A DNA stretch of 24,000 nucleotides from Methyloferula stellata AR4 (GTDB taxonomy: Bacteria > Pseudomonadota > Alphaproteobacteria > Rhizobiales > Beijerinckiaceae): contig NZ_ARWA01000001.1 in NCBI RefSeq assembly GCF_000385335.1, forward strand, positions 426,081-450,080. The letters are read 5' to 3'. This document shows, in pieces, positions 3,872-24,000 of this stretch (position 1 is its first letter; every line of letters begins with the position of its first letter). The position numbers were made by a program, and so were the translations under genes. The notes beneath the pieces are model-generated. The model was not told where the DNA came from and ran no database searches. It worked only from the letters and a program-made list of their open reading frames with translations.

Positions 3872-3888
3872 AGCCATGCGCGGAGGAA

Positions 3889-5540: not shown

Positions 5541-5584
5541 GGCGGCTTGGTCCGCCGAAAGCCGGGCGGAATGATCCCGGTTTT
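5541..5584 (+). terminator. Candidate intrinsic terminator for the glucan operon (two short GC hairpins, then TTTT)
   Basis: GGCGG(5541-5545)/CCGCC(5552-5556) hairpin, then CCGGG(5562-5566)/CCCGG(5576-5580) followed directly by TTTT 5581-5584. The stems are short, so support is weak. Confidence 0.3.
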
Positions 5585-5699
5585 AGCGGTGGCATTGCCG
5601 AAATCCGAGTTCGAGGACGGATGAGGCTGGGCCCACTGGCAATGCTTGACGTGGCCGCTCGCGAGGCAACGTGACCGGCGATGCGGTTCTGAGGTGCAC

Positions 5700-7109: not shown

Positions 7110-7878
7110 GTGGATCACAGGCCGGCGCAATCCGCGCCGCGATGTTTTGGCCGAAGCGCGCGCCGCGGCCGACGCAGGCGATTATGCTGCGGCCCTTGCG
7201 CTATGGGGGCCGCTTGCCCATGCGGGCGTGGCACGCGCCCAGAACAATATCGGCGCCTGCTTCTCTGAGGGTCTTGGGGTCGAGCGCGATCCTGCGCTTG
7301 CCCTCAAATGGCTGACGCTCGCAGCCGAAGGCGGCGATCCGGTCGGACAGCGAAACCTGGCGACGGCCTATTATAAGGGCGCGGGAGTTGAGGCGGACAT
7401 AGCCCGCGCGGCCGAACTCTACCGGGCCTCGGCGGCGCAAGGCGACGCCATCGCGCAGGACATGCTGAGTTTCCTGCTGCTTGAAGATAAGTCGATCTCG
7501 GCCGATCTTACGGAGGTGCATCGCTGGGCCCGGTCCGCCGCCGAAAATGGAGTAGCCAGCGCCATGACGCGATTGGGAATGCTCTATCACAACGCGATCG
7601 GCGTCGAACGCGATCCGGCCGCGGCCGTGCAGTGGTGGCGGCGCGCCGCCGAACTTGACGACGCCGATGCGCAGGCGATGCTTGGCGCAGCGCATCATCT
7701 TGGCAGCGGCGCGCTCGCGGACCAATCGATGGCGCTCGTCTATTTGCTGCGGGGACAGGCGGGCGGCAGCCGTTTGGCCGCGCCATTTCTCGGGCCTGTC
7801 CGCGCGGCACTTTCGCCCGCGGCGATCGTCGAGGCCGAACGGCAGGCGCAGCAGAAGCGGCTGGATGTGACGCCATGA
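7096..7878 (+). CDS. Sel1-like repeat (SLR/TPR-family) protein wedged between selA and selB
   Basis: Repeated about 36-aa units with the SLR signature: AQNNIGACFSEGLGVERDPALALKWLTLAAEGGDPVGQRNLATAYYKGAGVEADIARAAELYRASAAQGDAIAQ..., TRLGMLYHNAIGVERDPAAAVQWWRRAAELDDADAQAMLG. ATG 7096 overlaps the selA 3' end (stop 7107-7109). Its stop TGA 7876-7878 overlaps the selB ATG 7875 (ATGA). Confidence 0.8.
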   Translation: MRWLEWITGRRNPRRDVLAEARAAADAGDYAAALALWGPLAHAGVARAQNNIGACFSEGLGVERDPALALKWLTLAAEGGDPVGQRNLATAYYKGAGVEADIARAAELYRASAAQGDAIAQDMLSFLLLEDKSISADLTEVHRWARSAAENGVASAMTRLGMLYHNAIGVERDPAAAVQWWRRAAELDDADAQAMLGAAHHLGSGALADQSMALVYLLRGQAGGSRLAAPFLGPVRAALSPAAIVEAERQAQQKRLDVTP

Positions 7879-9944
7879 TCATCGGAACCGCCGGCCATAT
7901 CGATCATGGCAAGACAGCTCTGGTCAAAGCCCTGACCGGCGTGGATGCCGACCGCCTCAAGGAGGAAAAGGCACGCGGCATGACCATCGACCTCGGCTTC
8001 GCCTATTTGCCAACCGAGGCCGGACCCATTCTGGGTTTTGTCGATGTGCCCGGCCATGAGCGTTTCGTGCATACGATGCTGGCTGGCGCAAGCGGGATCG
8101 ACTTCGTCCTTCTCGTGGTCGCGGCGGATGATGGCGTCAAACCGCAGACCTTGGAGCATCTCGCGATCATCGACCTGCTCGGGATCAAGCGTGGTCTGGT
8201 GGTTCTGACAAAGGCCGATATCGCCACGCCCGAGCGGCTGGCAGATGTCGAGAACCAGATAAGGGCGGTGATCGCCGGAACGGTGCTCGAGAGCGCCGGC
8301 ATACTGCCGTTTTCGGCCGTCACGGGACAAGGTCTCGACGCCTTGCGCACCCGCCTTATCGCCGCCGCCTCCGACCCCGTGGACCGCGCGGCAGACGCGC
8401 GCTTCCGTCTCGCGGTCGATCGCGTCTTTACCCTCTCAGGCGTCGGCGTCGTCGTGACCGGCGCTGTGCTCTCAGGGTCGGTGCAAGTCGGCGACCATGT
8501 GCTCATCAGCCCATCCGGCCGCGCGGCGCGGGTGCGCTCGCTGCACGCTCAGAATAGTGAAGCGCAGATTGGCGGGGCAGGCGAACGCTGCGCTCTCAAT
8601 CTGGTGGGCGAGGACATCAACAAGGAAGCAATCCAGCGCGGCGACGTCGTGCTCGATCCAAAATTGCATGCGCCGACCGATCGCATCGATGCGAGATTGC
8701 GCCTGCTTCCGGGCGAGACGAAACCGGTCGGCCAATGGTTTCCGGTGCGGCTCCATCACGCCGCGGCGGAGGTCGGCGCGCGTATCGTCGTGCTCGCCGA
8801 CGAGCCGATCCAGGCGGGAGCCGTGGCAGATATCCAACTCGTGCTCGAACGGCCGATCGCCGCCGCGCAGCAGGATCGCTTTGTCATTCGCGACGCATCG
8901 GCGCAACGCACGATCGGCGGCGGCCGGTTCATCGACTTGCGTCCGCCTGCGCGGCGGCGGCGCACGCCGGAACGCCAAGCACAGCGCGCGGCTCTTGCCA
9001 TCGCCGATCCGCGTGCCGCTTTCGCGGCCCTGCTCGCGACGCCGCCCTATGCATGGGATTTGGCCGGCTTCGGTCGCGACCGCGCTTTGACAGCCGCGCA
9101 GACGCAGCGGCTTGCCGATGAGCTGGGACTCGTTCTCCTCGACAATGGCGTGTCTCGCATCGCAATCTCGCCTGCGCGGTGGCAGATGTTCGTGGCGAGC
9201 CTCATAGATCAGCTTGCTACCTTCCACGCCGAGACCCCCGATCTTCAGGGCATCGGCCGCGAGAAGCTGCGTCTGCTTTTACAACCGAGGCTCACTACGC
9301 CGGCCTTCGTCATCGCCTTGCAAAAAGCGGCCCTGACCGGCGAAGTGGTTCTCGACGGTGCGTTCGTCCGGCTTTCAACGCATGCGGCGCGTTTTACGCC
9401 GAAGGACGAAGCGGCCTTTGCCGCGATCGCGCCGCAGCTCGGCGGCGCGGACCGGTTTCAGCCGCCGCGCGTGCGCGACATCGCAAAGGCGATGCCGCAC
9501 CCAGAGGCCGACGTCAGGCGCCTGCTCAAACTCGCTGGGCGCATGGGTCTGGTCGATGAGGTGGCGCATGACCATTTCTTCCTGCGGCCGACCGTCCATG
9601 AAATGACGGCAATGATTGAAAGTGTAGCCGCCGATGGAGATGGCGTCTTCGCCGCCGCGCAGCTCCGTGACCGCTTGGCCAACGGCCGCAAGGTGGCGAT
9701 CCAGATCCTTGAATTTTTCGACCGGCACGGCGTCACGCTCCGTCAAGGCGATCTGCGCCGCGTCAATAAACATCGGTTGGATCTGTTCGGCCCCGCCGGG
9801 CTTTCATCCGCCGATCAACATGGAAGAGAATCGTCCCTGGTGGGGCGTTCGGACTTCAAATCCGAGTGGGGCTGCGAGCCTGTCTCAGGTGGGTTCGACT
9901 CCCACTCTCTTCCGCCAGCCTTCTCCCGGAGCGGATCTCGATGA
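7875..9944 (+). CDS. selB: Selenocysteine-specific translation elongation factor SelB; the ORF tail reads through selC
   Basis: N-terminal GTPase motifs [34 protein letters not shown], followed by winged-helix-like C-terminal domains. SelB-like sequence ends near ...[14 protein letters not shown] (about codon 638). The last 51 codons translate the spacer and the tRNA-Sec gene. The first in-frame stop is TGA 9942-9944. Confidence 0.9.
9822..9917 (+). tRNA. selC: tRNA-Sec (anticodon UCA), 96 nt including encoded CCA
   Basis: Folded by hand. 8-bp acceptor stem GGAAGAGA/UCUCUUCC plus discriminator G and CCA. 6-bp D-stem CGUCCC/GGGGCG with 4-nt loop UGGU. Anticodon stem UCGGA/UCCGA with loop CUUCAAA (UCA at 9856-9858). 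Long variable arm. 5-bp T-stem GUGGG/CCCAC with loop UUCGACU. This is the bacterial 8/5 tRNA-Sec architecture and resembles my recollection of E. coli selC. Confidence 0.92.
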
Positions 9945-11008
9945 CGGAAAGCGCATCCATGTCCCAATCGCCCCCTCGCCTGACCGATTTGGCGCATGGC
10001 GGAGGCTGCGGGTGCAAGCTTGCCCCATCCGTGTTGCAGCAGCTTCTCGCCAATCAGCCGCAAGCGGGCCCCTTTGCGAATCTTCTCGTCGGGACGGAGA
10101 CAGGCGACGACGCGGCTGTCTGGCAGATCGATGACGAAAACTGCGTCATTGCCACCACCGACTTCTTCATGCCCATGGTCGATGATCCGCGCGATTTCGG
10201 CCGCATTGCCGCGGCCAATGCTCTGTCCGACATCTACGCCATGGGCGGAACGCCGATCATGGCGCTGGCGGTCCTGGGAATGCCGCTCGACAAGTTGCCG
10301 GTGGAGACGGTGCGCGCGATCCTGCAAGGCGGTGCCTCGATCTGCGCCGAGGCCGGCATTCCGGTCGCAGGCGGACATTCGATCGATTCCGCCGAGCCGA
10401 TCTACGGCCTCGCCGTGATAGGCCTATGCAAACCGGGCAACATAAGGCGCAATTCCGGCGCCCGCCCCGGCGATGTGTTGATCCTGACCAAGGGGATCGG
10501 CATAGGCATCTATTCGGCGGCGTTCAAAAAGCAGAAGCTCCCCGATGATGCCTATGCCGAGATGATGGCCTCGACCACTCTGCTGAACCGCATCGGTCAT
10601 AAGCTCGCGCATGACGGGGATGTGCATGCCATAACGGACGTGACCGGCTTCGGGCTCCTCGGCCATGGTCTTGAACTGGCCCGCGGCGGCAACGTCAGCC
10701 TCGACATAGACTACAAGCGCATCCCGTTTCTGACGCAGGCGGAAGCTCTCGCTGAGGCGGGATTTGCCACCGGCGCATCGGGACGCAATTGGACGAGCTA
10801 TGGGGACGGGGTCGTCTTGCCGGCGGACTTGCCGGCCTGGAAGCGCGCCCTGCTCACCGATCCGCAAACCTCGGGCGGACTGCTCGTCGCCTGCGCGGCG
10901 GATCGCGCTGAGTCTATTAGAACTGCCATCGAGGCCGCGGGTTATCCGCGCGTCAGCATCATCGGGTCGGTCGCACAAGGCGAACCGGCGATCCGCATCG
11001 CACATTAG
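9941..11008 (+). CDS. selD: Selenide, water dikinase (selenophosphate synthetase), Cys-type
   Basis: Track ORF 9866..11008. [16 protein letters not shown] is the SelD glycine-rich active-site loop, with Cys rather than Sec. An AIR-synthase-like fold continues (DDAAVW..., TTDFF.P.VDDP.DFG.IAA.NA.SD..AMGG.P). I place the start at ATG 9941, which overlaps the selB stop (ATGA). Confidence 0.92.
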
Positions 11009-11022
11009 CTTTGGGGGGATCA

Positions 11023-12135
11023 ATGACCACAGCGCGCCAGCCCCATCCGGCATCAGATAATTTGGAGCCGGATGCGGGCGGAAAACCGGTTCCCACTTTT
11101 CCTCATCCAGCTCTGGGATGGATAACCTTTCTCCTGATCGCGGTCTTGGGCCTCTTCTACGTGAAGTGGTTCCCCTACTATAATCGCGCCTTTGTCGCCG
11201 CGGCCAATCATTCGATCGGTCAATCCATTTTGATGGGCAAGGCCGCAAGTCCGCCGGCTCCTTCGCTCAGCGCCGCGCTCGATTATGCGTTCGCCTATGG
11301 CAAGGCGATCTGGCAGGCCATGGTGCTCGGCCTGCTGCTCGGTTCCGCCATCCAGGCCTTGCTGCCCGTCAATTGGGTCGCGAAACTTTTGGGCCGGACG
11401 AGTTTCGGCAGTGTCGCCGCGGGCGGTTTATTGGCGCTCCCCGGTATGATGTGCACTTGCTGCGCGGCGCCTGTCGTCGTCGGGCTGCGCGAGCGTCAAG
11501 CGTCACCCGGCGGGGCGATCGCGTTCTGGCTCGGCAATTCTGTGCTGAACCCGGCGACGCTTGTCTTCATGGGTTTCGTGCTCGGCTGGGATTGGACGGC
11601 CTTGCGCCTCGGCCTCGGCATTTTGATGGTGTTTGGGATCGGCTATCTGGTGAACTTGATGGTCACGCCGCAAGAAGCCACGGCGGCGCAGACGCAACTC
11701 GCGGAATTGACCGAAAAACCGCAGACATCCGGCACCTTCACGCGGTGGATGCAAATCCTGGCGCGCATGTCGGTGCGGCTGATTCCCGAATACATCATAC
11801 TGGTCCTGGCACTGGGCGCGGCGCGCGCCTGGCTTTTTCCTTTTGTCGGACCGGAGGTCAGCAATCATATCGGATGGATCGCGGCACTCGCGGTCGCAGG
11901 CGCGATCTTCGTCATCCCGACCGCTGGCGAAGTGCCGATCGTTCAGGCGATGCTTGCGCTCGGCGTGGGCGTCGGACCCGCTGGCGCATTGCTGATGACG
12001 CTGCCGCCGATCAGCGCGCCGTCGCTCGCGATGCTCGCCCGCTCCTTCCGGCCGCAAGTGCTCGCCTTCGTTTCGGCCTCGGTCGTCGGCTTCGGGCTCG
12101 CCGCCGGCCTGCTTGCGATCGCGTTGAAATTTTAG
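11023..12135 (+). CDS. Polytopic membrane permease of the PF03773 (ArsP/YraQ 'predicted permease') type with a Cys-Thr-Cys-Cys motif
   Basis: Track ORF 11011..12135. About 8-10 hydrophobic helices. LPGMMCTCCAAPVVVGL (codons 11452-11463) resembles the vicinal-cysteine motif of this family. ATG 11023 is preceded by GGGGGGA, 14 nt after the selD stop. The first about 30 codons overlap a hairpin/repeat region, so the true start could differ. Confidence 0.75.
   Translation: MTTARQPHPASDNLEPDAGGKPVPTFPHPALGWITFLLIAVLGLFYVKWFPYYNRAFVAAANHSIGQSILMGKAASPPAPSLSAALDYAFAYGKAIWQAMVLGLLLGSAIQALLPVNWVAKLLGRTSFGSVAAGGLLALPGMMCTCCAAPVVVGLRERQASPGGAIAFWLGNSVLNPATLVFMGFVLGWDWTALRLGLGILMVFGIGYLVNLMVTPQEATAAQTQLAELTEKPQTSGTFTRWMQILARMSVRLIPEYIILVLALGAARAWLFPFVGPEVSNHIGWIAALAVAGAIFVIPTAGEVPIVQAMLALGVGVGPAGALLMTLPPISAPSLAMLARSFRPQVLAFVSASVVGFGLAAGLLAIALKF
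11074..11114. repeat. Partial copy of the hairpin repeat also found at 14732-14771
   Basis: gcgggcggaaaaccggttcccacttttcctcatccagctct versus 14732-14771 gcgggcggaaaaccgctcacacttttcctcatcccgctct. By hand alignment about 35 of 41 positions are identical with one indel. It contains the GGAAAA/TTTTCC and GGATG/CATCC inverted pairs. Confidence 0.6.
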
Positions 12136-12142
12136 ATACGGA

Positions 12143-13072
12143 TTATCCGGCAAGCAGCAGCGGATTTGGCGCGTGGCGCGACCAGCCCGCCTCGCCGACG
12201 AGAATGTCGAGCCCCAATGTCGCGAGGTCGTCGGCGAAAGGATCGACGTTGATATCCTTTGTTTGATAGAGCATTTTCGCGTAGCTGTGGCATTCGTTGC
12301 AGGTCTCGGCCTTGACGGCGCCTGAATCGCCTTCGATTCCCTCCTGCATCAAGGAGCGCGCCTCGCCGCAGGTGATGCAAACGGCGCGCACATGGTTCCA
12401 TGCCGTAGAGCAGAGCGAACAATAAAGATAACGCGTGCCCGGCGTCTTGCCCGACGCGGTCACCACGCCGGAAACCGGCGTCGAGCCGCAGCAGGGACAA
12501 AGCCCGCGCTGCGGCAACAGCGACAAGGACGGCGCGGGCAAACGAGACGCCAGGCTCGTGAAATAGACTTGCAGAGCCGCCGCCACATAGAGCGCGGCGC
12601 CCGCATCGGAAGGATCGACGCTGCCATGCAGGAAGCCGTCGGCGAGAGCTTCGACCGCTTCCGGCGCATAAGCCCGCAGCTTCGCCATCTCTGCCAAGGC
12701 TTCCGGTGGCGCGGCACTCTTGTCGAGCTCATCGAGCACAAGAGCCAGTCCGTTTCGCCAGACGGGGTCGCGCCGATGGCCGTCGGCCGCGAGAGGTGGC
12801 ATGCCCGCTTCGACCGCTTGCTCCACCGCGGCGAGATCCGGCCCGGCGAACGGCCCGAGCTTCGTTGCGGCAAGGTGCTGAGCCTTCGCAAGTTGCGCCA
12901 TGAAGCGCAGCCATTCCTCCAATGGATGGCCGGCCGACAGAACCTCCAGCCGGGCGGCGGTCCGGGAAAATCGCGTCGCGAGGTTGGGCAGGATCAGCGC
13001 GTCGGGCGCCGTGACGCCGCCCTGCGGATCGCCGATCCAGACGCCTTGAGAACCAACTTCGCCTTGTCTCAT
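12143..13072 (-). CDS. fdhE: Formate dehydrogenase accessory protein FdhE
   Basis: Four Cys pairs typical of FdhE: CPCCGS...YLYCSLCSTAWNHVRAVCITCGE...AETCNECHSYAKMLY. The stop is only 7 bp from the convergent permease stop. Confidence 0.9.
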   Translation of the reverse strand: MRQGEVGSQGVWIGDPQGGVTAPDALILPNLATRFSRTAARLEVLSAGHPLEEWLRFMAQLAKAQHLAATKLGPFAGPDLAAVEQAVEAGMPPLAADGHRRDPVWRNGLALVLDELDKSAAPPEALAEMAKLRAYAPEAVEALADGFLHGSVDPSDAGAALYVAAALQVYFTSLASRLPAPSLSLLPQRGLCPCCGSTPVSGVVTASGKTPGTRYLYCSLCSTAWNHVRAVCITCGEARSLMQEGIEGDSGAVKAETCNECHSYAKMLYQTKDINVDPFADDLATLGLDILVGEAGWSRHAPNPLLLAG

Positions 13073-13096
13073 CGACGCCGCCTCATGCGTTGCTTC

Positions 13097-13771
13097 TCAT
13101 CTGCGCGGCGCGTCGCTGTGGGCGCGCGGCGTCGGCCCGCGGGAGCCACTTGCCGCCAGCCCTCTGAACCACTTGCGGTGGTGCCGCCACGCCCAGCCCG
13201 GCGTCACATAGCCCTGCGTCATCGCCCGAAGCGAGCCTTTGACCCAGATCGCGGCATAGACATGGATGATCCACACGAGGATCGCCGCTATTGCCGCGAG
13301 ACTATGGATCAGGACCGCGACGCGTTGCGTTTCGATCGAGGTGTAAGTCGAGAAATAATATTCCCAGATTACCAGGCCCGTAAAGAGCAGCACTGGCACG
13401 AGCAGCGCCATCGACCAGAAGACGAATTTTTGGCCAGCATTGAAACGGGGGACTTCCGGAACATTTTCTTCTTCGTTCACCAGCACACGATTGATCGCGC
13501 GAAGCCAGGCGATATCGTCGCGGCTCCACATATTGTCGCGCCAGAACTGTACGATCAGCCCGGCATAGCTGATGAACAGCACGATGCCGATCCACGGATG
13601 GATCGCCCGCGTCTGTTGACCGCCGCCAAAGAGTGCCGACAAGAAAAACAGCGACGGGTCGAACATCGAAAGCCCGGAGAGCAATAGAAGGACGAAGCAG
13701 CCGCCGGTGATCCAGTGGTTGACCCGGGTGAGGGTCGGATTGCGGATCAATGTTCCTCTGGGATAGGTCAT
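13097..13771 (-). CDS. fdnI: Formate dehydrogenase gamma subunit (cytochrome b556, FdnI/FdoI type)
   Basis: Track ORF 13097..13870. From ATG 13771 it reads [37 protein letters not shown]...[15 protein letters not shown]...[36 protein letters not shown]...W...HH.KW, which aligns along its length with my recollection of E. coli FdnI. ATG 13771..13769 overlaps the fdxH stop 13770..13768 (ATGA). Confidence 0.88.
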
Positions 13772-14694
13772 TGTGCAGCATCCTTCACGCTTGGCGGCTC
13801 CTCGCGAAGCAGGCGCTGCGCTTCCGTTTCGTCCTCCGGCTGCACCTCGTTCGGCCCGACGGTGATCCAATGCATGAAGCCGGAGATGGCAGCGAAGGCG
13901 ATGCCGGCCAGAGCCACGGGCTTCAGAAGTCCTTTCCAGATCGAGACGAAGACGCTGATATGCGGGTCCTTAGGCAGGCCCGCGTAGATCGTCGGGTCGT
14001 CGGCATGCTGCAAAACATACATGACATGCGTGCCGCCCACGCCCGGCGGATCATAGAGGCCGGCATTGGCGAAGCCGCGCGACTTGAGATCGACGATACG
14101 CTCCCCCGCCCATGTCGTCATGTCGGTCTTCGACCCGAACATGATCGCGCCAGTGGGGCATGACTTGACGCAGGCCGGTTCCAACCCGACCGAGACCCGA
14201 TCCGAGCACAGGCTGCACTTGTAGGATTTGTGATCCTCCGGACTGATGCGGGGAATGTTGAACGGGCAGCCTTTGACGCAATAGCCGCATCCGATGCAGG
14301 CGTCGCTGATGAAATCGACGATGCCATTGGCATGTTGCACGATCGCGCCGGGCGCCGGGCACGCCTTGAGGCAGCCAGGGTCCTCGCAATGCATGCAGCC
14401 GTCCTTGCGGATCAGCCATTCGAGATTGCCCTTGTCATCCTCCCATTCGGTGAACTTCATCACCGTCCAGGTGTTCTGATCGAGGTCGAGCGGATTATCG
14501 TAGGTGCCTTCGAAATATCCGACCTCGCCGCGCAGATTGTTCCACTCCATGCACGCCGACTGACAGGCCTTGCAGCCGATGCAGCGCGACACGTCGATCA
14601 GTTTCGCGACCTCCTGCTCGTGATCGCGAACCGACGGCGGCGTCAGGGTCGACGCCGAGCGCCGGATGTAATCTTGCGATTGCAGATCTGCCAT
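13768..14694 (-). CDS. fdxH: Formate dehydrogenase beta (4x[4Fe-4S]) subunit
   Basis: Ferredoxin-type Cys clusters [45 protein letters not shown] and a C-terminal membrane anchor helix ([22 protein letters not shown]). AAGGAG RBS upstream of ATG 14694. Confidence 0.92.
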
Positions 14695-14870
14695 CGACGG
14701 CTCCTTACATCACGATGATTTAGAGCGGGACGCGGGCGGAAAACCGCTCACACTTTTCCTCATCCCGCTCTAGAGCATGATCCCAAAAAGCAGCAGACTT
14801 TTTGGACAGGATCATGCGGTTAAACGACTGCTTAAAGCGTGCTCACCATTCAACTTGAAACGACGCCGCT
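14695..14870. repeat. Stacked-hairpin intergenic repeat element (REP/MITE-like) filling the fdnG-fdxH gap
   Basis: Three consecutive inverted repeats. TAGAGCGGGA(14721-14730)/TCCCGCTCTA(14764-14773) encloses GGAAAA/TTTTCC. Next is ATGATCC..CAAAAAG/CTTTTTG..GGATCAT (about 14776-14817). Last is GCTTAAAGCG/CGCTTTAAGC (about 14831-14876), whose distal arm contains the fdnG stop codon. The core aaaccgctcacactttt resembles a dispersed Rhizobiales repeat I recall; this is unverified. Confidence 0.65.
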
Positions 14871-17800
14871 TTAAGCGACGGGCGGTGTCGTCTTCTCGAT
14901 GTTTACAAGGAATGCCTTGAATTCAGGGGTCTGCGTATTGGCATCGCCGACCGACGGCGTGAGCGTATTGGCGCCATAGCCCTTGCGGGCCTGGCCGGTG
15001 AAGCCCCAATGCAGCGGCACGCCGATCACATGGGTTGGTTTTCCGTCCACCATCAGCGGACGGATACGTTTGGTGACATAGGCCTTGCACACGATCACCC
15101 CGCGCTTCGACGTCAGGCGGACCCATCCGGCCTGCGTAATTCCCTTTTGCTTCGCTAGGACCTCGCCGATCTCGATGAATTCCTCCGGCTGGAGAATCGC
15201 GTTGATTAGCGCGTGCTTGGTCCAGAAGTGGAAGTGTTCGGTCAGCCGGTAGGTGGTCGCGACATAGGGGAAATCCGCCGAGGTTCCGAAGTCCGCCCGG
15301 TCGTCGGCGAATACGCGCGCCGCGGGGTTGGTGCTGACCTTGGGGTGCAGCACATTGGGCGACGGCGATTCAAACGGTTCGTAATGTTCCGGGAACGGTC
15401 CCTCGACCAATTGGTCGCGCCCAAAAAGCCGCCCGACTCCTTCAGCATTCATGATGAAGGGACCGACCGCATCGGAAGGTTTCGTCGTCGGCGCGTAGTC
15501 GGGCACATCGATGCCGACCCATTTCGTGCCGTTCCATTCGATGATCGGCTTCTCTGGGTTCCAGGGTTTGCCGGCCGGATCCGCGCTGGCACGGTTATAG
15601 AGAATCCGGCGGTTGGCCGGCCAGGCCCAGGCCCAGTTCGGCGCAATGCCTTGCTCGCGCGGGTCGGTCGCATCGCGGCGCGCCATCTGATTGCCCTTCT
15701 CGGTGTAGGAGCCCGAGAAGATCCAACAGCCTGACATGGTCGTGCCGTCGTCGCGCAATTGCGCGAAACCATCCAGCAATTGACCGGCGCGTAATGTCGT
15801 TGCACCCGTGGCGTCCTTGATATCGACCAAGGCGCGACCGTTCATGTCCTTCGCCAATTCCTCCGGATTCGGATCGACCGGATTCGTGTAATTCCAGGTC
15901 AGGTTCAGGAGCGGGTCTGGAAACGCGCCGCCGTCCTTGCGATACATTTCACGCAGCCGATGGAAGATGCCGGACATGATCCAGATGTCGCTCTGCGCTT
16001 CGGCTGGCGGCTCTGCGGCCTTCCAATGCCATTGCAGCCAGCGCGACGAATTGACGAGCGAGCCGTCCTCCTCGGCGAAACAGGTTGTCGGAAGCTGGAA
16101 GACCTCGGTCTGGATCGAGGCCGGATCGGACGGGTTCTGCGGACCGAAATTTTCCCAGAACCTCGATGTCTCCGTGTCGAGCGGATCCATCACGACGAGG
16201 AATTTCAGCTTGCCCAGCGCCTTGCGGATCTTGCCTCTGTCCGGAAATGCCTGCAGCGGATTGAAGCCCTGGCAGATGTAGCCGTTCATCTCGCCATTCG
16301 CCATCATCTCGAAGGCTTTTATGATGTCGTAGAGCGGGATATCGAGCTTCGGCAGCCAATCATAGGCCCAGTCATTGTCCGGCTGTGCAGCGTCGCCGTA
16401 GATCGCCTTCTGGAAGCTGACGAAGAACTTCCGATAGTTCTGCCAGTAACTGGTTTGTCCGGGACGCAGCGGCTTAAAGAGCCGCTTCTTCATATAGTCC
16501 TCGAAACTGGTCTCCTTATCGCTCGGAAGCGTGAGATAACCCGGCATCAGGTTTGACAGAAGGCCGATATCGGTCAGCCCCTGAATATTGGAATGACCGC
16601 GCAAAGCATTCATCCCGCCGCCGGCGATACCGATATTGCCCAGCAGGAGCTGGACCATCGCCATAGCGCGAATATTCTGAGTCCCTATCGAATGCTGGGT
16701 CCAGCCGAGTGCGAACATGCTCGTCAACGCCTTGTCGGGCGCGGAGGTCGAGGCGAACAGTTCGCAGATCTGCAGATATTTATCGCGCGGGGTGCCGCAG
16801 ATACGCGACACCATTTCCGGCGTGTAGCGGTCTACATGCTGGCGAAGCAGGTTGATGACGCAGCGCGGGTTCTGCCACGTGTCGTCGATCTTGGCAAAGC
16901 CGTTCTCGTCGAGTTCGTAGTCCCAGCTTGACTTGTCGTAGGCGTGCTTATCCGCTTCGTAACCGGTAAACAGCCCATCCTCGAAGCCGTAGCCTTCCTT
17001 CACGATCAGGCCGGCATTGGTATAGGCCCGCACATATTCGTGCTGGATCGCATCCTTCTCCAGAAGATAGCGCATCATGCCGTTGAGGAACGCGATATCG
17101 GTTCCCGGACGGATCGGCGCATAGACATCGGCGACCGCTGCCGTGCGCGTAAAGCGCGGATCGATTACGACGAGCTTGGCCGCGTTCTCGATCTTTGCCT
17201 CGACCACCCATTTGAAACCGCACGGATGCGCTTCGGCGGCATTGCCGCCCATGACCACAACAACATCGGCATTCTTGATATCCTGCCACGTGTTGGTCAT
17301 TGCACCGCGACCGAATGTTGGGGCCAGACTGGCCACCGTCGGTCCGTGTCAGACGCGTGCCTGGTTGTCGAAGACCACCATTCCGAGGGCTCGGGCGACC
17401 TTCCATGTCACATAAGCCGTCTCGTTCGACGACGCGGAGGCCGCCAGCATGCCCGTGCTGAGCCATCGGTTGACCGTCGTGCCGGCGGAGTCCTTGGGGA
17501 TGAAGTTCGCGTCGCGATCCTGCTTCATCAGCGTCGCTATGCGGCTCAATGCGAAATCCCACGAGACCTGCTTGAACTCGCTGCTGCCGGGCGCCCGATA
17601 TTGCGGATACTTCAACCGTGTGGGCGCATGCACGATATCGAGCAGAGCCGAGCCTTTGGGGCAAAGCGTGCCGCGGTTCACGGGATGGTCCGGATCACCT
17701 TCGATATGGATGATGTCGGATTTGGCGTTCTTCGCGCGGTCGCCAAGACTGTAAATCAGGATGCCGCAGGCAACCGAGCAATAGGTGCAGGTGTTGCGGG

Positions 17801-17942
17801 TTTCGGTTGTGGCTGCCAGCTTGTAAGGCCGGAGCGAAGACGCAAGCGCGGCACCTGCGAAGCCAAAGCCAAGAGCACCAAGACTGGTTGCAGCGAGACC
17901 GGCGCCAGTGAGCTTGATAAAGCCGCGACGACTTAGATGCAT
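14871..17942 (-). CDS. fdnG: Formate dehydrogenase alpha (Mo/W-bisPGD) subunit, periplasmic, selenocysteine-containing; one gene spanning two track ORFs
   Basis: Track ORFs 17349..17981 and 14871..17336 are joined in frame by TGA 17351..17349, giving ...VVFDNQARV-U-HGPTVASLAPTFGRGAMTN..., the canonical FdnG/FdoG Sec context. Tat signal MHLSRRGFIKLTGAGLAATSLGALGFG from ATG 17942 (RBS GGAG). N-terminal Fe-S motif CTYCSVACG and HIEGDPDHPVNRGTLCPKG. Confidence 0.93.
17309..17351 (-). promoter_or_regulatory. Sec-UGA recoding site plus bacterial SECIS-like hairpin in fdnG mRNA
   Basis: mRNA: UGA CAC G-GACCGA-CGGU-GGCCA-GUC-UGGCC-CCAACAU-UCGGUC. The outer stem is GACCGA/UCGGUC (17344..17339 with 17314..17309). 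The apical stem is GGCCA/UGGCC with loop GUC. The hairpin starts 4 nt after UGA, similar in layout to the E. coli fdhF/fdnG SECIS as I recall it. Confidence 0.7.
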
Positions 17943-18007
17943 TCCGCGCACTCCGTTCAAACCCACGCGACAGATGAACAAGGCCGCGCGGGGACGTCCG
18001 ATACGCA

Positions 18008-18036
18008 GATATAGACAAAAGCAGCGGACGTCTCAA
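18008..18036 (-). promoter_or_regulatory. Candidate sigma70-type promoter of fdnG
   Basis: On the minus strand: TTGAGA (18036..18031), a 17-nt spacer, then TATATC (18013..18008), about 65 nt upstream of ATG 17942. Sequence-only prediction. Confidence 0.3.
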
Positions 18037-18153
18037 GCCTATGCAAATAAAGTCTTATTGCGTCCAAGCTGCTGATTTTTTCAAAATGACCCGAAGAATT
18101 TCGTGAATGCGATATTGGAGAGATTATCGCTGTCCGCAAAAATGCCTGTCCCT

Positions 18154-18660
18154 TCATAAGCAATGGAGGCCCGGCATTCGTCCGCCGCTCCCATGAGTGC
18201 CTTGTGAGTTTTGTTCGGCCACCAAGGCTTCGGCCATGCTCGCGCGCCCCGGGCGAGCGGGAACATTTTTGTGATGAGGCATGCCGGCGATCGGAAGGCG
18301 GCTGTCGCTAGAGCGGAATAAGGAAAAGCGTATAGCGGTTGATGCGCGGCCGTGATGTCGTTGGAACAGCTTCGAAAATGCAGTGGCAGTCTCATAGCCC
18401 GCTCGACGTGCAATCCCCTCGTCACTTGATTCGAGTAGAAATGCAGCCTCCGTCATCCGGCGTGCGATCAAATAACGGTGCATGGACTGGCCGACGGGCT
18501 TCCAGTCAATACGGCAGCTTGGCGCGACATACCGACGTTCTATGTAATCAGAACGAAAGACAAGGTACTCGCACCCGAGGAAGCCGCGCTCGCGACGTGA
18601 CGATACGGTTCCCGGTGCCAGCGCCGGGAGCCCAAGGCTTGCTGGGAAGGCGTAAGGAAT
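18154..18660 (-). pseudogene. AraC/XylS-family HTH remnant (probably truncated or degenerate)
   Basis: The frame of track ORF 18154..18483 stays open upstream to beyond 18660. It reads ...YIERRYVAPSCRIDWKPVGQSMHRYLIARRMTEAAFLLESSDEGIARRAGYETATAFSKLFQRHHGRAS..., resembling the two HTH units of AraC-family regulators. There is no ATG/GTG/TTG in frame between 18483 and 18660. The frame then runs antisense into the hydrolase gene, so no ligand-binding domain can be encoded. Confidence 0.35.
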
Positions 18661-18696
18661 GACTCGGCCTTCCCGATGATCGAAGGAAGAAAGATT

Positions 18697-19467
18697 ATGA
18701 TGATGAACAGACGTATTTTTTCGCGCGCCATTGTTGCCGGCGCCGCCGCTTCATTGATTTCGACCCGCGGCATGGCCGCAAACCCGGCTCCGACGAAGGC
18801 GCGTAACATCGTCTTCGTGCATGGGCTATTCGCTGACGGGTCATGTTGGTCCGAGGTGATAGCGAGATTGCAGCCGCAAGGCTTCAACTGCACGTCCGTC
18901 CAAAATCCTCTGACAACGCTGCCAGAAGCAGTGGCCTCGGCCCAACGCGTACTGGCGCAGCAAAATGGCCCGACCGTGCTGGTCGGGCATTCGTTCTCGG
19001 GAATGATCGTCACCGAGGCCGGTGTGCATCCGAGCGTCTCGGCACTTGTTTATATCGCAGCGCGGGCACCGGATGCGGGCGAGGATTACACAGCCTTGGC
19101 CAAGACATATCCGACGCCGCCGGCGTCCGCTGGAATCGTCTTCGACGGCGATGAGGGGCGTCTCGGCGAGGCGGCGTTCCTGCGCGATTTCGCGGGCGAC
19201 TTGCCGGAAGCAAGGGCGAAGGTTCTCTATGCGGTCCAGCAGCCGTTTCATAAGGCTCTGTTAGCCGGCAAGACCGAGCATGCTGCCTGGCGGTCGAAGC
19301 CGAGCTTTTATGCGGTTTCGACGGAAGACCGGACGATCAACCCCGATCTCGAACGTTTCATGGCCAAGCGCATGGGCGCCACGACCATCGAAGTGAAGGC
19401 GAGCCATCTTTCGCTGATTTCCCACCCCGATGAGATCACCCAGCTGATCCTGCAAGCAGCCGGATAG
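18697..19467 (+). CDS. Secreted alpha/beta-fold hydrolase (Tat-like signal)
   Basis: Track ORF 18676..19467. AGGAAG RBS lies 7 nt before ATG 18697. Signal MMMNRRIFSRAIVAGAAASLISTRGMAA. IVFVHGLFADGSCW (oxyanion region), nucleophile elbow GHSFSG, and a late SHLSLISHP histidine motif. Confidence 0.85.
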   Translation: MMMNRRIFSRAIVAGAAASLISTRGMAANPAPTKARNIVFVHGLFADGSCWSEVIARLQPQGFNCTSVQNPLTTLPEAVASAQRVLAQQNGPTVLVGHSFSGMIVTEAGVHPSVSALVYIAARAPDAGEDYTALAKTYPTPPASAGIVFDGDEGRLGEAAFLRDFAGDLPEARAKVLYAVQQPFHKALLAGKTEHAAWRSKPSFYAVSTEDRTINPDLERFMAKRMGATTIEVKASHLSLISHPDEITQLILQAAG

Positions 19468-19692
19468 TGCGGCCGGCGAAGAGGTCGGCCATTCGGTAAG
19501 TGCCAACTGCCGCAAGTATGCAGGATTTTTGACGCGGCTTGAGTCTTGTATGGGATTATCGGCGCTTGTATTTTTGACCTACGTGCGTTTGCCGTCGCGG
19601 AAGGGGCTCATTCTGGGCTATGATCGGCGATGGCAAACAAGCCATCAGCGCCACCCCGAGTGGACGAACTCACTGATGACAAGGAGCATGTC

Positions 19693-20223
19693 ATGTCAGA
19701 ACCCGACGAAGGCCCTGGGGCCGCCCCGGTTAAGAAGTCAAAAATAAAAGAAGCCGCCCCGGTGGAAGAAAAGATCGATTCCGTTCTCCATGTGGACCGG
19801 ACGGCTGCGCCCGCCCATCCCGAATGGATGAAAACCCCGCTGCACCCTGAACTCGAACTGACCGGTCCGGCCGAATACGACCTCAAAACAAACATGGATC
19901 TCTCGTTCATCGCAGGTCAGGGAGACGGCAAGTTCACGGGCCTGGACGCCTACGAGCACCTGAAGAGCAATAATTTGCTCGACGGGTGCTTGGGAATTGC
20001 GGACGGCCTTGCCATCCAAGAGCGCGGCGTGAAGGCTTTCAGCAAGTTCTTCGAGTCCAAGGACAGCGCGGTGGTAGCCCTATGGACGGCGGTTTTTACC
20101 GACGAAGAGGGCAAGCTCTGCGTTCCGCTTGCCATTCCTGTCCTCAGCAAAGTGGCGATAACGAAGGGCGACCTCAGCGTCCTTTGGACCAAAAACCGCC
20201 CTCTGGTTCGCTTCAAAAGCTGA
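19693..20223 (+). CDS. Hypothetical protein with a disordered Lys/Glu/Pro-rich N-terminus and an unrecognised C-terminal domain
   Basis: Track ORF 19630..20223. Strong RBS AAGGAG (19681-19686) lies 6 nt before ATG 19693. The ORF is followed by a strong hairpin. I recognise no family motif. Confidence 0.55.
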   Translation: MSEPDEGPGAAPVKKSKIKEAAPVEEKIDSVLHVDRTAAPAHPEWMKTPLHPELELTGPAEYDLKTNMDLSFIAGQGDGKFTGLDAYEHLKSNNLLDGCLGIADGLAIQERGVKAFSKFFESKDSAVVALWTAVFTDEEGKLCVPLAIPVLSKVAITKGDLSVLWTKNRPLVRFKS

Positions 20224-20245
20224 ACTCCGCAGGGCCCAGCCCTTT

Positions 20246-20277
20246 CCCCGCGCTCGCCTCAAATTGGCGGCGCGGGG
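20246..20277 (+). terminator. GC-rich hairpin after the orphan gene (candidate terminator, no clear U-tract)
   Basis: CCCCGCGCTCGCC-tcaaatt-GGCGGCGCGGGG gives a 12-bp stem with one unpaired base. It is followed by ATTCATCT rather than a T-run. Confidence 0.35.
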
Positions 20278-20602
20278 ATTCATCTAGGCAACTGGTGTGC
20301 CCGGCTCCGATGAAGCGGCACGGCGGGCCGCTGCCAGGTGCGCGGAGGGATCGCACGACGCAAAAGAAATCGATGTACCGACCCGCTCAGGGAGGACTCA
20401 GTCAGCTATTCGAGTCGTTTCCGGGGGCATTCGTCGCGCAGGGTCTTGGGCGCGGAGCGAGGGGTCTTGAGCCCATCAGCCCGCGGCTGGACCAACCCCA
20501 AAATCAAATGTAATTGTTTTGATGGATTTAATGAGCAAGAGGGAACCGAATTATGTACTTATACACTTGAAAAATATTGTATTTTACAAGCATATATTTT
20601 TT

Positions 20603-20624
20603 TGTACCAACACGTGTACCAACA
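20603..20624. repeat. Tandem direct repeat TGTACCAACA(CG)TGTACCAACA inside a 29% GC tract
   Basis: TGTACCAACA at 20603-20612 and again at 20615-20624 (12-bp period), with the central palindrome ACACGTGT. A diverged copy TGTACCGAC lies at 20373-20381. Confidence 0.6.
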
Positions 20625-20810
20625 TTAAAAATTTGTAGTCGGGTTCGGGTGTTTTTCTGCCGATCTTTTTGCTCCGATCCCATCCTAAACGCAAAATCTT
20701 CGGCAGCAAACACGTTAAAGATCGCGGCACATTACGGGCGCTATATGATCGCCTATTTGCATCCGTCTGCTGTCATTCAATCCTCGCAGATGAGCGACCT
20801 CTGAGCCTTG

Positions 20811-20861
20811 TCGTCCCTTGAAGGACGAGCGCGTCCGTTTAGGACGACCGTGGGGTAGAAT
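20811..20861 (+). promoter_or_regulatory. Twin palindromes plus -10-like TAGAAT upstream of the protease gene (candidate operator/promoter)
   Basis: TCGTCC-cttgaa-GGACGA (20811-20828), then CGTCC-gttta-GGACG (20832-20846), then TAGAAT at 20856-20861. The start codon is at 20926 with RBS ACGGAGG (20912-20918). Confidence 0.3.
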
Positions 20862-20925
20862 ACAACCACACAAAATCATATGGATCTTCGTCTGCTTGCT
20901 GCTGGACATCAACGGAGGCGCCCGA

Positions 20926-21741
20926 ATGAAAGAGGTCATGACAGAAGACGAATGGAAGGCACATGCACGTCAGGCAGTCGCGCAGATGAAAAACTTTACG
21001 GCCCCGTTTGTCTCGCCTATCTCGTACGAGAAGCCGAACGATGTGCCCCGCTTGTCTGGCACTGGCTCCTTCATCGAGATATTCAGTCGGCGCTTTCTAT
21101 TGACGAACGAACATGTGCTGATCGACGATAAGACCGGCGATCCTTTCCCGGATTTAGCGTACGGTCTACGAGGAACCGACAATGTCTTTCGGATGCTGAA
21201 TGGGCAGGTCTCCGCAGGATACCCGATCGACTGCGCAATCGCTCCGATCACTGCCCAGGTGTGGGAGGCAAGCCATCAAGCGGCGACTATTCCCGAAGCG
21301 CTGATCACTTGGGCGCATGTCCCCGTCCCTCGTGAAATCCTGTTTTTCCGTGGCTATGCGCAGGAGAATTCGAGCTTCCACTTCGAGAACCTGCTTAGCG
21401 GTTCCACCTCCTATGGAACGCAGGAGATGGCGGAGTTACCAGATGGATTGAACAGCCGGTTCTTTTTCACGCTCCATCATTCGCCTGAAAAGGCTGAGAT
21501 GATCGATGGCGATCGTAGTCTGCCGCTGCCACCTGGTTTCAGTGGCTCAACTGTCTGGAACACGCGCTACGTGGAATGCCTATCTGCCGATCAGGCATGG
21601 ACACCGGCAGAGGCCCGTGTAAGCGGCATTGTCTGCCGCTGGCGCACGGGCGATACAGGAATAGTTGTCCTTCGTATTGAGTACATGCGGAGCTGGCTAC
21701 TCAACGCCCTAAACGAAATGAGTCTGAACAATCACTTTTGA
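20926..21741 (+). CDS. Cytoplasmic chymotrypsin-fold (trypsin-like, PF13365-type) serine protease
   Basis: Track ORF 20818..21741. I start it at ATG 20926, with RBS ACGGAGG 7 nt upstream. The His-Asp-Ser triad motifs occur in canonical order: GSFIEIFSRRFLLTNEHVL (His codon 21112-21114), YPIDCAIAPI (Asp), PPGFSGSTVWN (Ser codon 21541-21543). No signal peptide or TM helix. Sampled GC is about 48-50%. Confidence 0.75.
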   Translation: MKEVMTEDEWKAHARQAVAQMKNFTAPFVSPISYEKPNDVPRLSGTGSFIEIFSRRFLLTNEHVLIDDKTGDPFPDLAYGLRGTDNVFRMLNGQVSAGYPIDCAIAPITAQVWEASHQAATIPEALITWAHVPVPREILFFRGYAQENSSFHFENLLSGSTSYGTQEMAELPDGLNSRFFFTLHHSPEKAEMIDGDRSLPLPPGFSGSTVWNTRYVECLSADQAWTPAEARVSGIVCRWRTGDTGIVVLRIEYMRSWLLNALNEMSLNNHF

Positions 21742-21924
21742 CGATTTGCACTGCTGCGCACTTCGCAAGCTAAAAGGCAGACGTCGTTACCCACGAATGG
21801 CGTCCGTTCCATCGTCGTGAGCGGGCCATGTTCGCCGTCGTGGGATGGCTGAACCCGATTGCAAAAAGGGACAAGACCACCGTCCCCGCTGGCGAGTCGG
21901 CAGTCGCTGTGCGATGATGAGCCT

Positions 21925-23370
21925 ATGGACGACCCCCAGATAACCGAGATCTCGTTCACCCGCTTCAACGCTTTGGGCGGATATGCCCGCGCGCCAGGCT
22001 CGTGGCTGGTGTTCGACGAGTTGGCGTTTTTCGAAGCCGCTGGTGGCGACGTGATCGGTATCGCGACGAGGGATATCGCGGACCGGGACTTTGGGGGCAT
22101 CGTGATGGCACGGGACCGGAAGCTGCGGTTCCGTGCCGTGAACGTGACGGAATTCCACCCGACGCCCGAAGGGGGCAAGGAATCTCTGTTCGTAGGAATG
22201 CGGGAAGCCGCCTGCGCGCGGGCCGAGGATCACTACCAGGGTGACGAGGACGGACAGCCGGTCGACTTCTTCGCCCACCTGCACAACGCAGGGCGGCTCA
22301 ACCCTTCGTTCGTGCGGCTCACCAACGACGAGGGCTATTCGCCGGCGCGCGGAATCATCGAGTCACTGATGCGATGGCACGAAGATGCCGACGGCAACTT
22401 CGTCGAGCAGTTCCAGACGACCGGCTTCGATCAACGCATCTGGGAGCTGTACCTGTTCGCTATGCTAATCGAAGCCGGCTACGTTTTGGACCGCAGTCAC
22501 AACACGCCAGACTTCTGCTGCGACGGGATGCTCGGCTCGCTTTTCGTCGAAGCCGTGACCGTGGGACCGACGCTGAAGAACGGGAAGCTCGTTCCGGCGC
22601 CGCCTACGGAAACGCCGGAAGAGATCGATCTGTTCATGAAGCAATACATGCCGATCAAGTTTGGTAGCCCGCTTTATTCGAAGCTCAAGAAGAAGTATTG
22701 GGAACAAGAGCACGTCGCTGGGGCGCCGTTCGTCCTCGCTGTCGCCGATTTTTCCGCTCCCATGTCGATGGTGCGTTCGGCATCCGCCCTCACACGATAC
22801 CTGTTCGGCTATGAACAAGTTGCGAAAACCGACGCGCACGGCAACCTGACGATGCTGCCCCAACGGATCGACGAGCACAAGTGGGAGGACAAGACGATCC
22901 CCTCTGGCTTCTTCAGGCTACCGGGCGCGGAGAACGTCAGCGCGGTTATATCTACCACTGCGGGCACCATCGCGAAGTTCAATCGGCTGGGCGTCCTCGG
23001 CAAGTTCGGGTCCAAGCGCGTCTTGGTCATTCGCAAAGGGATGATGGTCGACCATAACCCGAATGCGACGCATCCGAAGCTCTTCAAGGTGATCGTGAAC
23101 TCGACCGGCTACGATGAGGACTGGATCGAGGGTCTTAATGTTTATCACAACCCCATTGCCAAAATCCCCCTGCCGATGGAGATGCTGCCGGGAGCCGCGC
23201 ACCATCACTGCGATGAATTTGGCCGGGTTACCAGCCACACACCCGAATTTCACCCGATCGCCTCGATGACCGAGCAGCACGTTCCGGTCGACGTCGATCA
23301 ATTGTTGGCTGAAGTCGGCGACAAAACACATGCGGTCTGGACCCTGAAGGCAGATGACGTGGGCGCCTGA
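21925..23370 (+). CDS. Hypothetical 481-aa protein with a central PD-(D/E)xK-like (restriction-endonuclease-fold) motif set
   Basis: Track ORF 21859..23370 (TTG). ATG 21925 is the next possible start, and neither has a strong RBS. The central region reads FDQRIWELYLFAMLIEAGYVLDRSHNTPDFCCDGMLGSLFVEAVTV. That is a helix with Glu, a strand, P-D (Asp codon 22510-22512), a 12-aa gap, then hydrophobic-E-x-V (Glu codon 22549-22551; the canonical Lys is Val). I recognise neither the flanking N-terminal (about 170 aa) nor C-terminal (about 230 aa) region. No P-loop. Confidence 0.6.
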   Translation: MDDPQITEISFTRFNALGGYARAPGSWLVFDELAFFEAAGGDVIGIATRDIADRDFGGIVMARDRKLRFRAVNVTEFHPTPEGGKESLFVGMREAACARAEDHYQGDEDGQPVDFFAHLHNAGRLNPSFVRLTNDEGYSPARGIIESLMRWHEDADGNFVEQFQTTGFDQRIWELYLFAMLIEAGYVLDRSHNTPDFCCDGMLGSLFVEAVTVGPTLKNGKLVPAPPTETPEEIDLFMKQYMPIKFGSPLYSKLKKKYWEQEHVAGAPFVLAVADFSAPMSMVRSASALTRYLFGYEQVAKTDAHGNLTMLPQRIDEHKWEDKTIPSGFFRLPGAENVSAVISTTAGTIAKFNRLGVLGKFGSKRVLVIRKGMMVDHNPNATHPKLFKVIVNSTGYDEDWIEGLNVYHNPIAKIPLPMEMLPGAAHHHCDEFGRVTSHTPEFHPIASMTEQHVPVDVDQLLAEVGDKTHAVWTLKADDVGA

Positions 23371-23716
23371 CGAAGTCGCAGGAGGCGGCTTTTAGCTAAC
23401 AGCTAGACGATGATCTTCAGTGGCCAAGCTGGCGTGGACCCCTGGATGCGGGGTTCACCTCAGCCTACCTCCTTGCAAACAGCTTTCTGCTTGATCCGAG
23501 TGCTGTCGCATCAGCAATGAATCACGATGCCTAGAGGCCACTGGGCTTTATGGTGACGCAGAGATTTCAACAAACACTCTGCGCTCTCCACCGAAGAAGA
23601 GCCGTCAACCAACACCCCGCAAACGCTTGGCAAGTCGCGTTCGGTCGCCTGAAGTCTCTTCATGTCGCCGCCTATATCCCTGCGCCGTCAATCAGGCGGC
23701 GCAGGAGTAAAGAAGA

Positions 23717-23913
23717 ATGCCTCAAATCCAAGAACCACATCCTCAAGGCGCAATGTCGGTTGACCGCTTTGCCCGCTGGGCCGGCATCGGCCGCACCTTG
23801 GCATGGGAGCAAATCCGCCAGCCGTCAAGGCTGGCCACCGGACCCTTGTCACGGTCGAGGAAGCCTCTCGCTGGCTGGCATCACGCCCTCTTCGGGAGGC
23901 TGCCAATGTCTAA
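23717..23913 (+). pseudogene. AlpA/excisionase-type HTH (HTH_17-like) gene, apparently interrupted by a 1-nt frameshift near 23816-23824
   Basis: AGGAG (23703-23707) lies 9 nt before ATG 23717. Frame 1 reads MPQIQEPHPQGAMSVDRFARWAGIGRTLAWEQIRQ, then degenerates. The +2 frame continues VKAGHRTLVTVEEASRWLASRPLREAANV* (stop 23911-23913). Joined together, this is the typical phage/ICE excisionase-like pattern (...kaG.rtlv..eea..wl). Confidence 0.45.
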
Positions 23914-24000
23914 GAAGAAAAGCGACATTGACCTCTATCTGAGGGGCGACCCGGCAATCCTGACGAAGGCTGTAGAGGAAATCCTGCGGGCCGGTTATCC
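23906..24000 (+). CDS. 5' end of an unidentified gene (continues past the window end)
   Basis: GGGAGG (23894-23899) lies 6 nt before ATG 23906, and the start overlaps the HTH gene stop. It reads MSKKKSDIDLYLRGDPAILTKAVEEILRAGY..., open to the window edge. Confidence 0.4.
   Translation, partial: MSKKKSDIDLYLRGDPAILTKAVEEILRAGY

Follow-up and report, generated by a model that had tools for sequence, protein, structure and literature searches.

We examined two neighboring genes near the end of a 24,000-nucleotide stretch of the Methyloferula stellata AR4 genome (contig NZ_ARWA01000001.1, positions 426,081 to 450,080; below, "the window" means this whole stretch), which a first-pass annotation had read as an undescribed immune module composed of a trypsin-like serine protease (gene 1) and a nuclease-like partner (gene 2). 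Our analysis points elsewhere: gene 1 and gene 2 are very probably two independent cargo genes that came to lie in one defense island, not a protease-plus-nuclease system. By its sequence, gene 2 is a full-length member of PD-T7-1, a known single-gene antiphage family, in a new host. Gene 1, according to its structural model, is a cytoplasmic serine protease of the chymotrypsin fold (Trypsin_2-like, clan PA) and belongs to an unannotated stand-alone family. The two same-strand open reading frames (ORFs) were confirmed and are called identically in an independent assembly of the genome.

Gene 2 and the PD-T7-1 family

The module had been described as orphan and undescribed, a view overturned for gene 2 by its match to the PADLOC model of PD-T7-1 (PDLC04073; E value of 2.6e-174, 578 bits), in which residues 7-451 align to profile positions 2-446 of 452 (98% profile coverage). 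A weaker match links amino acids (aa) 114-421 to PADLOC PD-T7-5 (PDLC04110; E value of 4.9e-47), phrog_8571 is matched with an E value of 1.4e-95, and no match was found in Pfam, NCBIfam, or the PDB sequences. The family extends over more than 2,316 homologous clusters; homologues occur on 103 plasmid records and 16 phage records, with stand-alone copies carried by plasmids as well as by lambdoid and Klebsiella phages.

PD-T7-1, which comes from Escherichia coli ECOR46 (RCQ85672.1), was found by functional selection and cloned as a single coding sequence (CDS) that bears the annotation "Nuclease" (Vassallo et al. 2022, PMC9519451, Tables S1 and S2). Its protection was stronger against T-even phages than against T7. 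When re-tested by expression in K-12, it protected against a Teseptimavirus and reduced the plaque size of T7 (PMC12409345), and reviews class it among the single-gene PD-(D/E)xK systems without a known mechanism. Besides the end-to-end profile match, gene 2 resembles PD-T7-1 in its size class (481 aa compared to about 450 aa), in the position of a weak, predicted PD-(D/E)xK-like core, and in the stand-alone habit of a gene borne by islands or mobile genetic elements (MGEs). It differs in that the family has no upstream protease gene and in that the validated members come from E. coli, whereas gene 2 is alphaproteobacterial and ∼30 to 40% identical to the enterobacterial phage-borne homologues. 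PD-T7-5, likewise a single gene annotated "nuclease" (Vassallo et al. 2022), shares the central region of gene 2, but the match is much weaker and does not include the N-terminal domain of gene 2, which groups with PD-T7-1.

The layout that had suggested a nuclease, namely, a helix glutamate, a P-D pair, and an E-x-V motif 12 residues farther on, is indeed present (E174, P195-D196, and E209-A-V), and none of the residues E174, D196, E209, and K245 varies among 31 homologues. In the AlphaFold2 (AF2) model (predicted local distance difference test [pLDDT] score of 76), this part of the protein contains a helix (residues 166-183), two strands (197-201 and 204-213), a second helix (231-255), and a further strand (269-275), an order that agrees with the one expected. 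The E-A-V motif lacks the usual lysine of the nuclease core. A Foldseek search of the PDB with the full-length model gave no significant match (best were SfsA, with an E value of 0.25, and Hjc, with an E value of 2.1), and the family profile found a marginal MarR-like match in the PDB over residues 4-90 (E value of 0.023). Published HHpred results for PD-T7-1 list Hjc at 80% probability over residues 177-219; together with the PADLOC assignment, they bear out the earlier view of gene 2 as a defense gene with a putative restriction-endonuclease-like core. We propose that gene 2 would act alone in M. stellata, as PD-T7-1 does in E. coli, with its N- and C-terminal regions perhaps sensing infection and the degenerate core (E174, D196, and E209) then attacking nucleic acid.

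Some further observations concern gene 2 and its relatives. Its most conserved stretch, aa 141-180 (window positions 22345-22464; mean column identity of 0.90 to 0.94), contains the run RW.ED.DGNF.EQFQ..GFDQR.WE. The stretch overlaps the worst-modeled region (pLDDT of <50, aa 128-167) and could be a functional site whose folding depends on a ligand or an oligomer. In the protein search, the best match of gene 2 was at 76% identity, whereas the source-genome protein of gene 1 was found at 100%, so the M. stellata PD-T7-1 homologue may be absent from the searched collection. On two roseobacter plasmids (L048, Pseudosulfitobacter, and L047, Roseivivax), PD-T7-1 homologues lie among ParB, SSB, H-NS, DUF932, and DUF736 genes, which resemble plasmid leading-region or maintenance genes more than a classical defense island. 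On plasmid pXCV183 of Xanthomonas euvesicatoria (L049, 5763-9024), an AAA ATPase and an S8 peptidase are encoded directly downstream of the homologue; these are taken to be a separate module, and the peptidase class differs from that of gene 1.

Gene 1 and its protease family

The gene 1 protein has no match in Pfam (E≤1), NCBIfam, PHROGs, PADLOC (E≤1), or the PDB sequences; because of this, its identity comes from structure and family profiles alone. An AF2 model built from 20 homologues (pLDDT of 85.3, predicted template modeling score of 0.88) matched the protease domains of DegS, HtrA1, and uPA (urokinase) in a Foldseek search of the PDB (E value of ∼1e-7, probability of 1.0), with 145 matches at E≤1e-3 and target TM-scores of 0.6 to 0.78. 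The Foldseek comparison of AF2 models, which had been put forward as a check for both proteins, thus settled the protease fold of gene 1 but left gene 2 with the subthreshold matches to SfsA and Hjc. The family profile of gene 1 matches the V8 glutamyl endopeptidase (E value of 8.6e-6) through the family motifs LTNeHV, DlAi, and GlSGS, the counterparts of LTNKHV, DLAI, and GNSGS, the catalytic-triad motifs of the V8 enzyme.

The motifs LLTNEHVL, IDCAIAPI, and GFSGSTVW, from which a chymotrypsin fold had first been proposed, are all present. In an alignment of 82 sequences (22 to 71% identity), the only invariant columns are those of the triad (H63, D102, and S206) and G143, G207, and W225, and the triad is also invariant in a smaller set of 20 relatives. 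This conservation suggests that gene 1 is probably proteolytically active. Pfam Trypsin_2 (PF13365) is matched at E≤1 by 59 of the 82 relatives (best E value of 2.3e-8) and not by gene 1 itself, so the link to that family is indirect, as it comes through the relatives. A short DUF2934 match occurs in 7 of the 82 family members (best E value of 6.3e-8). With clusters defined at 50% identity, a profile search of 1.84 billion representatives returned 951 gene 1 family clusters at E≤1e-3; the best 150 of these are mostly ∼255 to 300 aa long, and the shorter ones cover part of the profile.

As first described, gene 1 looks like an intracellular protein. Its N terminus contains no hydrophobic stretch (within the first 60 residues, Kyte-Doolittle means over 15 aa peak at 0.63), and no PDZ domain was seen in the sequence or the model; nor was a sensor domain found by AF2 and Foldseek in what is a single 271-aa domain, modeled with N- and C-terminal helices. 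With the S1B and S1C proteases of clan PA (staphylococcal V8 and Spl; HtrA, DegS, DegP, and DegQ), gene 1 shares the double beta-barrel and the His-Asp-Ser order, but it has no signal peptide, PDZ domain, or propeptide, and its context is one of MGEs and islands rather than housekeeping genes. Its own sequence has diverged too far to be recognized by Pfam, NCBIfam, or the PDB sequences. A few family members show weak PADLOC matches through the trypsin domain (best E values of 1.6e-5, 8.9e-5, and 1.7e-3) to the Lamassu LmuA-protease, the retron type XI RT-protease, and the candidate PDC-S45. In those systems, the protease is either fused to a Lamassu or retron core or paired with one; no such core is present here, and gene 1 itself is unmatched at E≤1.

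Conservation of the gene pair

For the tblastn searches, loci of gene 1 relatives were taken from genomes and metagenomes, with up to 8 kb on each side. Gene 2 gave no match in 20 loci carrying gene 1 relatives, and over the 42 loci checked, the two genes were found together only in the source genome, the 35 gene 1-relative loci being negative. In all, gene 2 relatives were missing from the 45 loci fetched for a gene 1 relative besides the source, a set that takes in the locus of the closest gene 1 relative (76% identity) and three plasmid loci. That closest relative lies between a helix-turn-helix (HTH) gene and a tyrosine integrase, and relatives at 73 to 74% identity have unrelated neighbors. 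The same holds from the other side: eight loci with gene 2 relatives (four at 73 to 76% identity) contained no gene 1. Among the copies that stand alone beside unrelated neighbors are those at 76% and 73% identity, three on plasmids, and one in a lambdoid phage. At the nucleotide level, blastn homology to other loci covers positions 20935-21741 and 21938-23358 and never spans the 183-bp spacer. The first-pass annotation had proposed testing for a conserved pair and had named a lack of synteny outside close relatives as evidence against it; our synteny check gave no co-occurrence beyond the source genome among the loci examined, so that by this standard the pair is not conserved.

The comparison of gene 2 with 30 homologues showed no insertion or deletion, and every homologue examined for context stands alone; with no such insertion, there is therefore no added prosegment for a protease to cut. 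We also looked for other partners of gene 1. ORF clustering within 4 kb of gene 1 at 23 distinct loci gave no family common to more than three loci, and no conserved small ORF was found next to gene 1 across loci, because homology ends at the CDS edges. A candidate hidden partner, an upstream ORF of ∼431 to 460 aa that recurs within a distant subgroup, proved to encode a tyrosine integrase. The alpha/beta-hydrolase encoded at 18676-19467 was considered as a protease-gated effector and rejected: it has a signal-like N terminus, lies 1.4 kb away, has a GC content of 0.60 like the window, and is not conserved beside gene 1 relatives.

The closest precedents for a two-gene reading are the trypsin-MBL and caspase-nuclease (canu) modules, in which, as here, a protease gene lies beside a predicted nuclease gene in a defense island. 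There, the nuclease is an MBL-fold gated zymogen, the genes coevolve, and the protease carries a fused sensor (Avs, Hachiman, Lamassu, or DRT) (Tuck et al. 2025, PMC12799240; Evans et al. 2025, bioRxiv 10.1101/2025.11.14.688446). Here, in contrast, gene 2 is a PD-T7-1 protein without an extra segment, the protease is a bare domain, and the adjacency is found in one genome only. More broadly, the zymogen effectors of known protease-effector modules are MBL, alpha/beta-hydrolase, Pepco, EACC1, and gasdermin proteins; gene 2 is in none of these families, and the modules differ from gene 1 and gene 2 on every defining point tested.

Against this background, we consider it extremely improbable that gene 1 switches on the PD-T7-1-like nuclease, or is itself licensed by it, in a pronuclease or abortive-infection design. 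Such a system would fit the preservation of catalytic residues in both proteins, the adjacency of the genes, and the precedent of the modules just described. It is at odds with a pair seen, among the loci examined, in the source genome only; with closest homologues that in each case lack the other gene; with a PD-T7-1 that works as a single gene; with a gene 2 that has no extra gate or prosegment; with a gene 1 that has no sensor domain, while the proteases of known modules are sensor fused; and with homology that ends at the CDS edges. As far as the sequences can tell, then, synteny, CDS-edge homology, and the absent prosegment lend no support to the licensing of a nuclease by a protease proposed at the outset.

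Several points nevertheless weigh against treating the two genes as independent. First, both are read from one strand, and the 183 bp that separate them contain no terminator-like site, so that the genes could be co-transcribed; a lineage-specific functional link is conceivable but very improbable. Second, the pair recurs in a second sequencing sample, which is not independent evidence because the gene 1 protein is identical there. Third, protease-activated nucleases are an established design (Tuck et al. 2025, PMC12799240; Evans et al. 2025), which makes the two-gene reading plausible in principle. Fourth, synteny on the gene 2 side was judged from about a dozen contexts out of more than 2,300 clusters. 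Finally, the restriction-endonuclease-like core of gene 2 is a prediction, and the nuclease role that it would imply draws on weak profile and fold signals.

Genomic context of the protease family and its possible role

The gene 1 family occurs in mobile defense islands of Alpha- and Gammaproteobacteria. Relatives adjoin CBASS genes (with SAVED-HNH effectors among the pooled neighbors), a Bil-type ubiquitin-like operon with Fic, a Gabija-like pair with an integrase, a DpnII/MboI-like nuclease with an AAA_16 protein, an Abi_2 gene, a DUF4238 gene, and, 14 nt away on the upstream side, a HEPN/Toprim-associated gene. One relative lies near a NERD protein and toxin-antitoxin genes, and others are found beside PIN, TIR, and ABC-3C genes on Agrobacterium Ti and At plasmids. 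At the locus of the closest relative (76%), an HTH_36 gene lies upstream of the protease and overlaps it by 4 nt.

One could imagine gene 1 as a portable, promiscuous activator of whichever effector gene lies directly downstream, a role that we regard as very unlikely. The next same-strand gene is effector-like at several loci (PD-T7-1 here; DpnII-MboI, a TIR protein, and DUF6361 elsewhere), but at other loci the downstream gene is convergent or an integrase, the gaps to it are mostly ∼170 to 390 bp, and no partner family recurs. Moreover, at loci with an operon-like arrangement, the partner of gene 1 lies upstream and is not the same from one locus to the next (HTH_36 or HEPN/Toprim associated).

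A second possibility is that gene 1 serves the mobile element itself, as an establishment or antidefense protease with which integrative and conjugative elements (ICEs), plasmids, and prophages degrade host immune or repressor proteins. Relatives do lie in ICE regions, as in one ICE with ArdC and ParB; 16 of the 22 plasmid matches to the family are on plasmids typed as conjugative; and relatives adjoin integrases. Another relative, in E. coli LD91-1 (NZ_CP192621.1, 1555740-1556528), comes right after the tail-fiber genes where a lambdoid prophage ends. However, many contexts are dense defense islands and not leading regions, the family has no match in 50,697 phage genomes, and no tie to a known antidefense family was found. 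We rate this role as unlikely but a serious rival; it concerns gene 1 alone and would not rescue a two-gene module.

Because the family sits in defense islands, a single-gene defense or conflict role fits gene 1 best. In its most likely role, gene 1 would act autonomously, as a single-protein conflict or defense factor that cleaves a host or invader protein, its target being something other than PD-T7-1. Tentatively, and with less than even confidence, we suggest that the family is an undescribed, self-contained protease defense or counterdefense factor that moves alone among prophage ends, ICEs, plasmids, and integrase-flanked islands; less likely, it may also process PD-T7-1 in Methyloferula. 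The Lit protease of prophage e14 is a single prophage-borne protease that works as a lone abortive-infection factor, and it is a zinc metalloprotease with a fold unrelated to that of gene 1; it may offer a functional analogy for gene 1, as a lead only.

Two features of the islands with gene 1 relatives deserve mention. At one locus (L010, with the same layout in L011), a second Trypsin_2 protein (6876-7916; 347 aa, Pfam E value of 2.4e-11), undetected by tblastn with gene 1, immediately precedes the gene 1 relative (8001-8804); the tandem could be a two-protease arrangement or a coincidence. In addition, nucleotidyltransferase and/or DUF6602 genes recur (L039, 15969-16771; L051, 8346-9823; L053, 1355-2832), with a clear nucleotidyltransferase and DUF6602 pair on an Agrobacterium plasmid, and may be another island-resident module.

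Gene layout and surrounding DNA

The coordinates of the two genes and of the features around them are collected in Table 1.

Table 1. Features of the gene 1 and gene 2 locus (window coordinates)
Feature	Position	Strand	Evidence or remark
Gene 1 ORF, 271 aa	20926..21741	+	ORF list; same call in independent assembly of same genome
Catalytic His63 codon (LTNEHV)	21112..21114	+	Invariant in 82 sequences; aligned to V8 LTNKHV
Catalytic Asp102 codon (IDCAI)	21229..21231	+	Invariant in 82 sequences; aligned to V8 DLAI
Nucleophile Ser206 codon (GFSGS)	21541..21543	+	Invariant in 82 sequences; aligned to V8 GNSGS
Gene 2 ORF, 481 aa	21925..23370	+	ORF list; same call in independent assembly of same genome
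Predicted PD-(D/E)xK-like core of gene 2, aa 166-275	22420..22749	+	AF2 and conserved residues
Spacer between gene 1 and gene 2, 183 bp	21742..21924	.	Shared with no other fetched locus (blastn)
Shine-Dalgarno GGAGG	20914..20918	+	7 nt 5' of gene 1 ATG; direct reading
AT-rich tract 5' of gene 1	20500..20660	.	GC 0.30 versus 0.61 in window
Direct repeat TGTACCAACA, two copies flanking CACGTG palindrome	20603..20624	.	Repeat search
Hairpin, 20-nt arms, 80% complementary	20653-20710	.	Repeat search; in AT-rich tract near TGTACCAACA repeat

A longer ORF of gene 1 starting at TTG would add a hydrophobic N-terminal extension. We rejected it as part of the protein because GGAGG precedes the ATG at 20926 and the homologues start at or near that codon. 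The AT-rich tract and palindromic sites reported upstream are present, and the 500-bp window at 20501-21000 has a GC content of 0.446; the tract is probably a cargo junction or promoter region. Within it, the TGTACCAACA/CACGTG repeat could be a candidate operator and the hairpin region a candidate promoter, judging by their sequences; neither the repeat nor the hairpin is conserved at the other fetched loci (blastn). No terminator-like or sigma-70-like site was found in the spacer, the promoter and terminator scan as a whole stayed within shuffle expectation, and Rfam gave no match within 19400-24000. The segment had been called low in GC. Gene 1, at 0.545, bears this out; gene 2, at 0.598, scarcely does, its value being barely below that of the window (0.607; 0.616 for positions 1-19500).

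Downstream of gene 2, a 95-aa ORF that extends past the window end had been labeled excisionase-like, an identity for which neither Pfam nor PADLOC gave a match. The locus is a defense island, as had been surmised: past the window end, the source genome encodes a type II restriction-modification pair, made up of a PDDEXK_13/REase-ARP restriction enzyme and a C5 methylase, as well as an 804-aa HATPase_c_3 protein. A tRNA or att site marking an island boundary was looked for in the window and not found, the sole tRNA gene being that of tRNA-SeC (9822-9917). The continuation of the island (L021, 9141-16976; adding 14765 converts to window coordinates) also encodes a 453-aa protein with a weak Rep-like match (E value of 0.034) and a 309-aa protein with a weak receiver-domain match. 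In the second sequencing sample, the same gene pair is followed by other genes directly 3' of gene 2.

Elsewhere in the window, a molybdopterin oxidoreductase (14871-17981) is called as two ORFs, of 210 and 821 aa, because of an in-frame TGA on the minus strand at 17349-17351. Its context reads ...FDNQARV*HGPTVASL...FGRGAMTN, which we take to be the selenocysteine site of formate dehydrogenase alpha subunits, and the tRNA-SeC gene lies in the same window; the oxidoreductase is probably a selenoprotein mis-split by gene callers.

Significance

If true, the two-gene reading would have meant a new protease-plus-nuclease immune design. The locus instead illustrates that two genes lying side by side in a defense island cannot for that reason be taken as a system. 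What remains as a lead is the protease itself, as bare, cytoplasmic, trypsin-like proteases of this kind are widespread and unannotated in mobile defense islands, including the end of an E. coli prophage.

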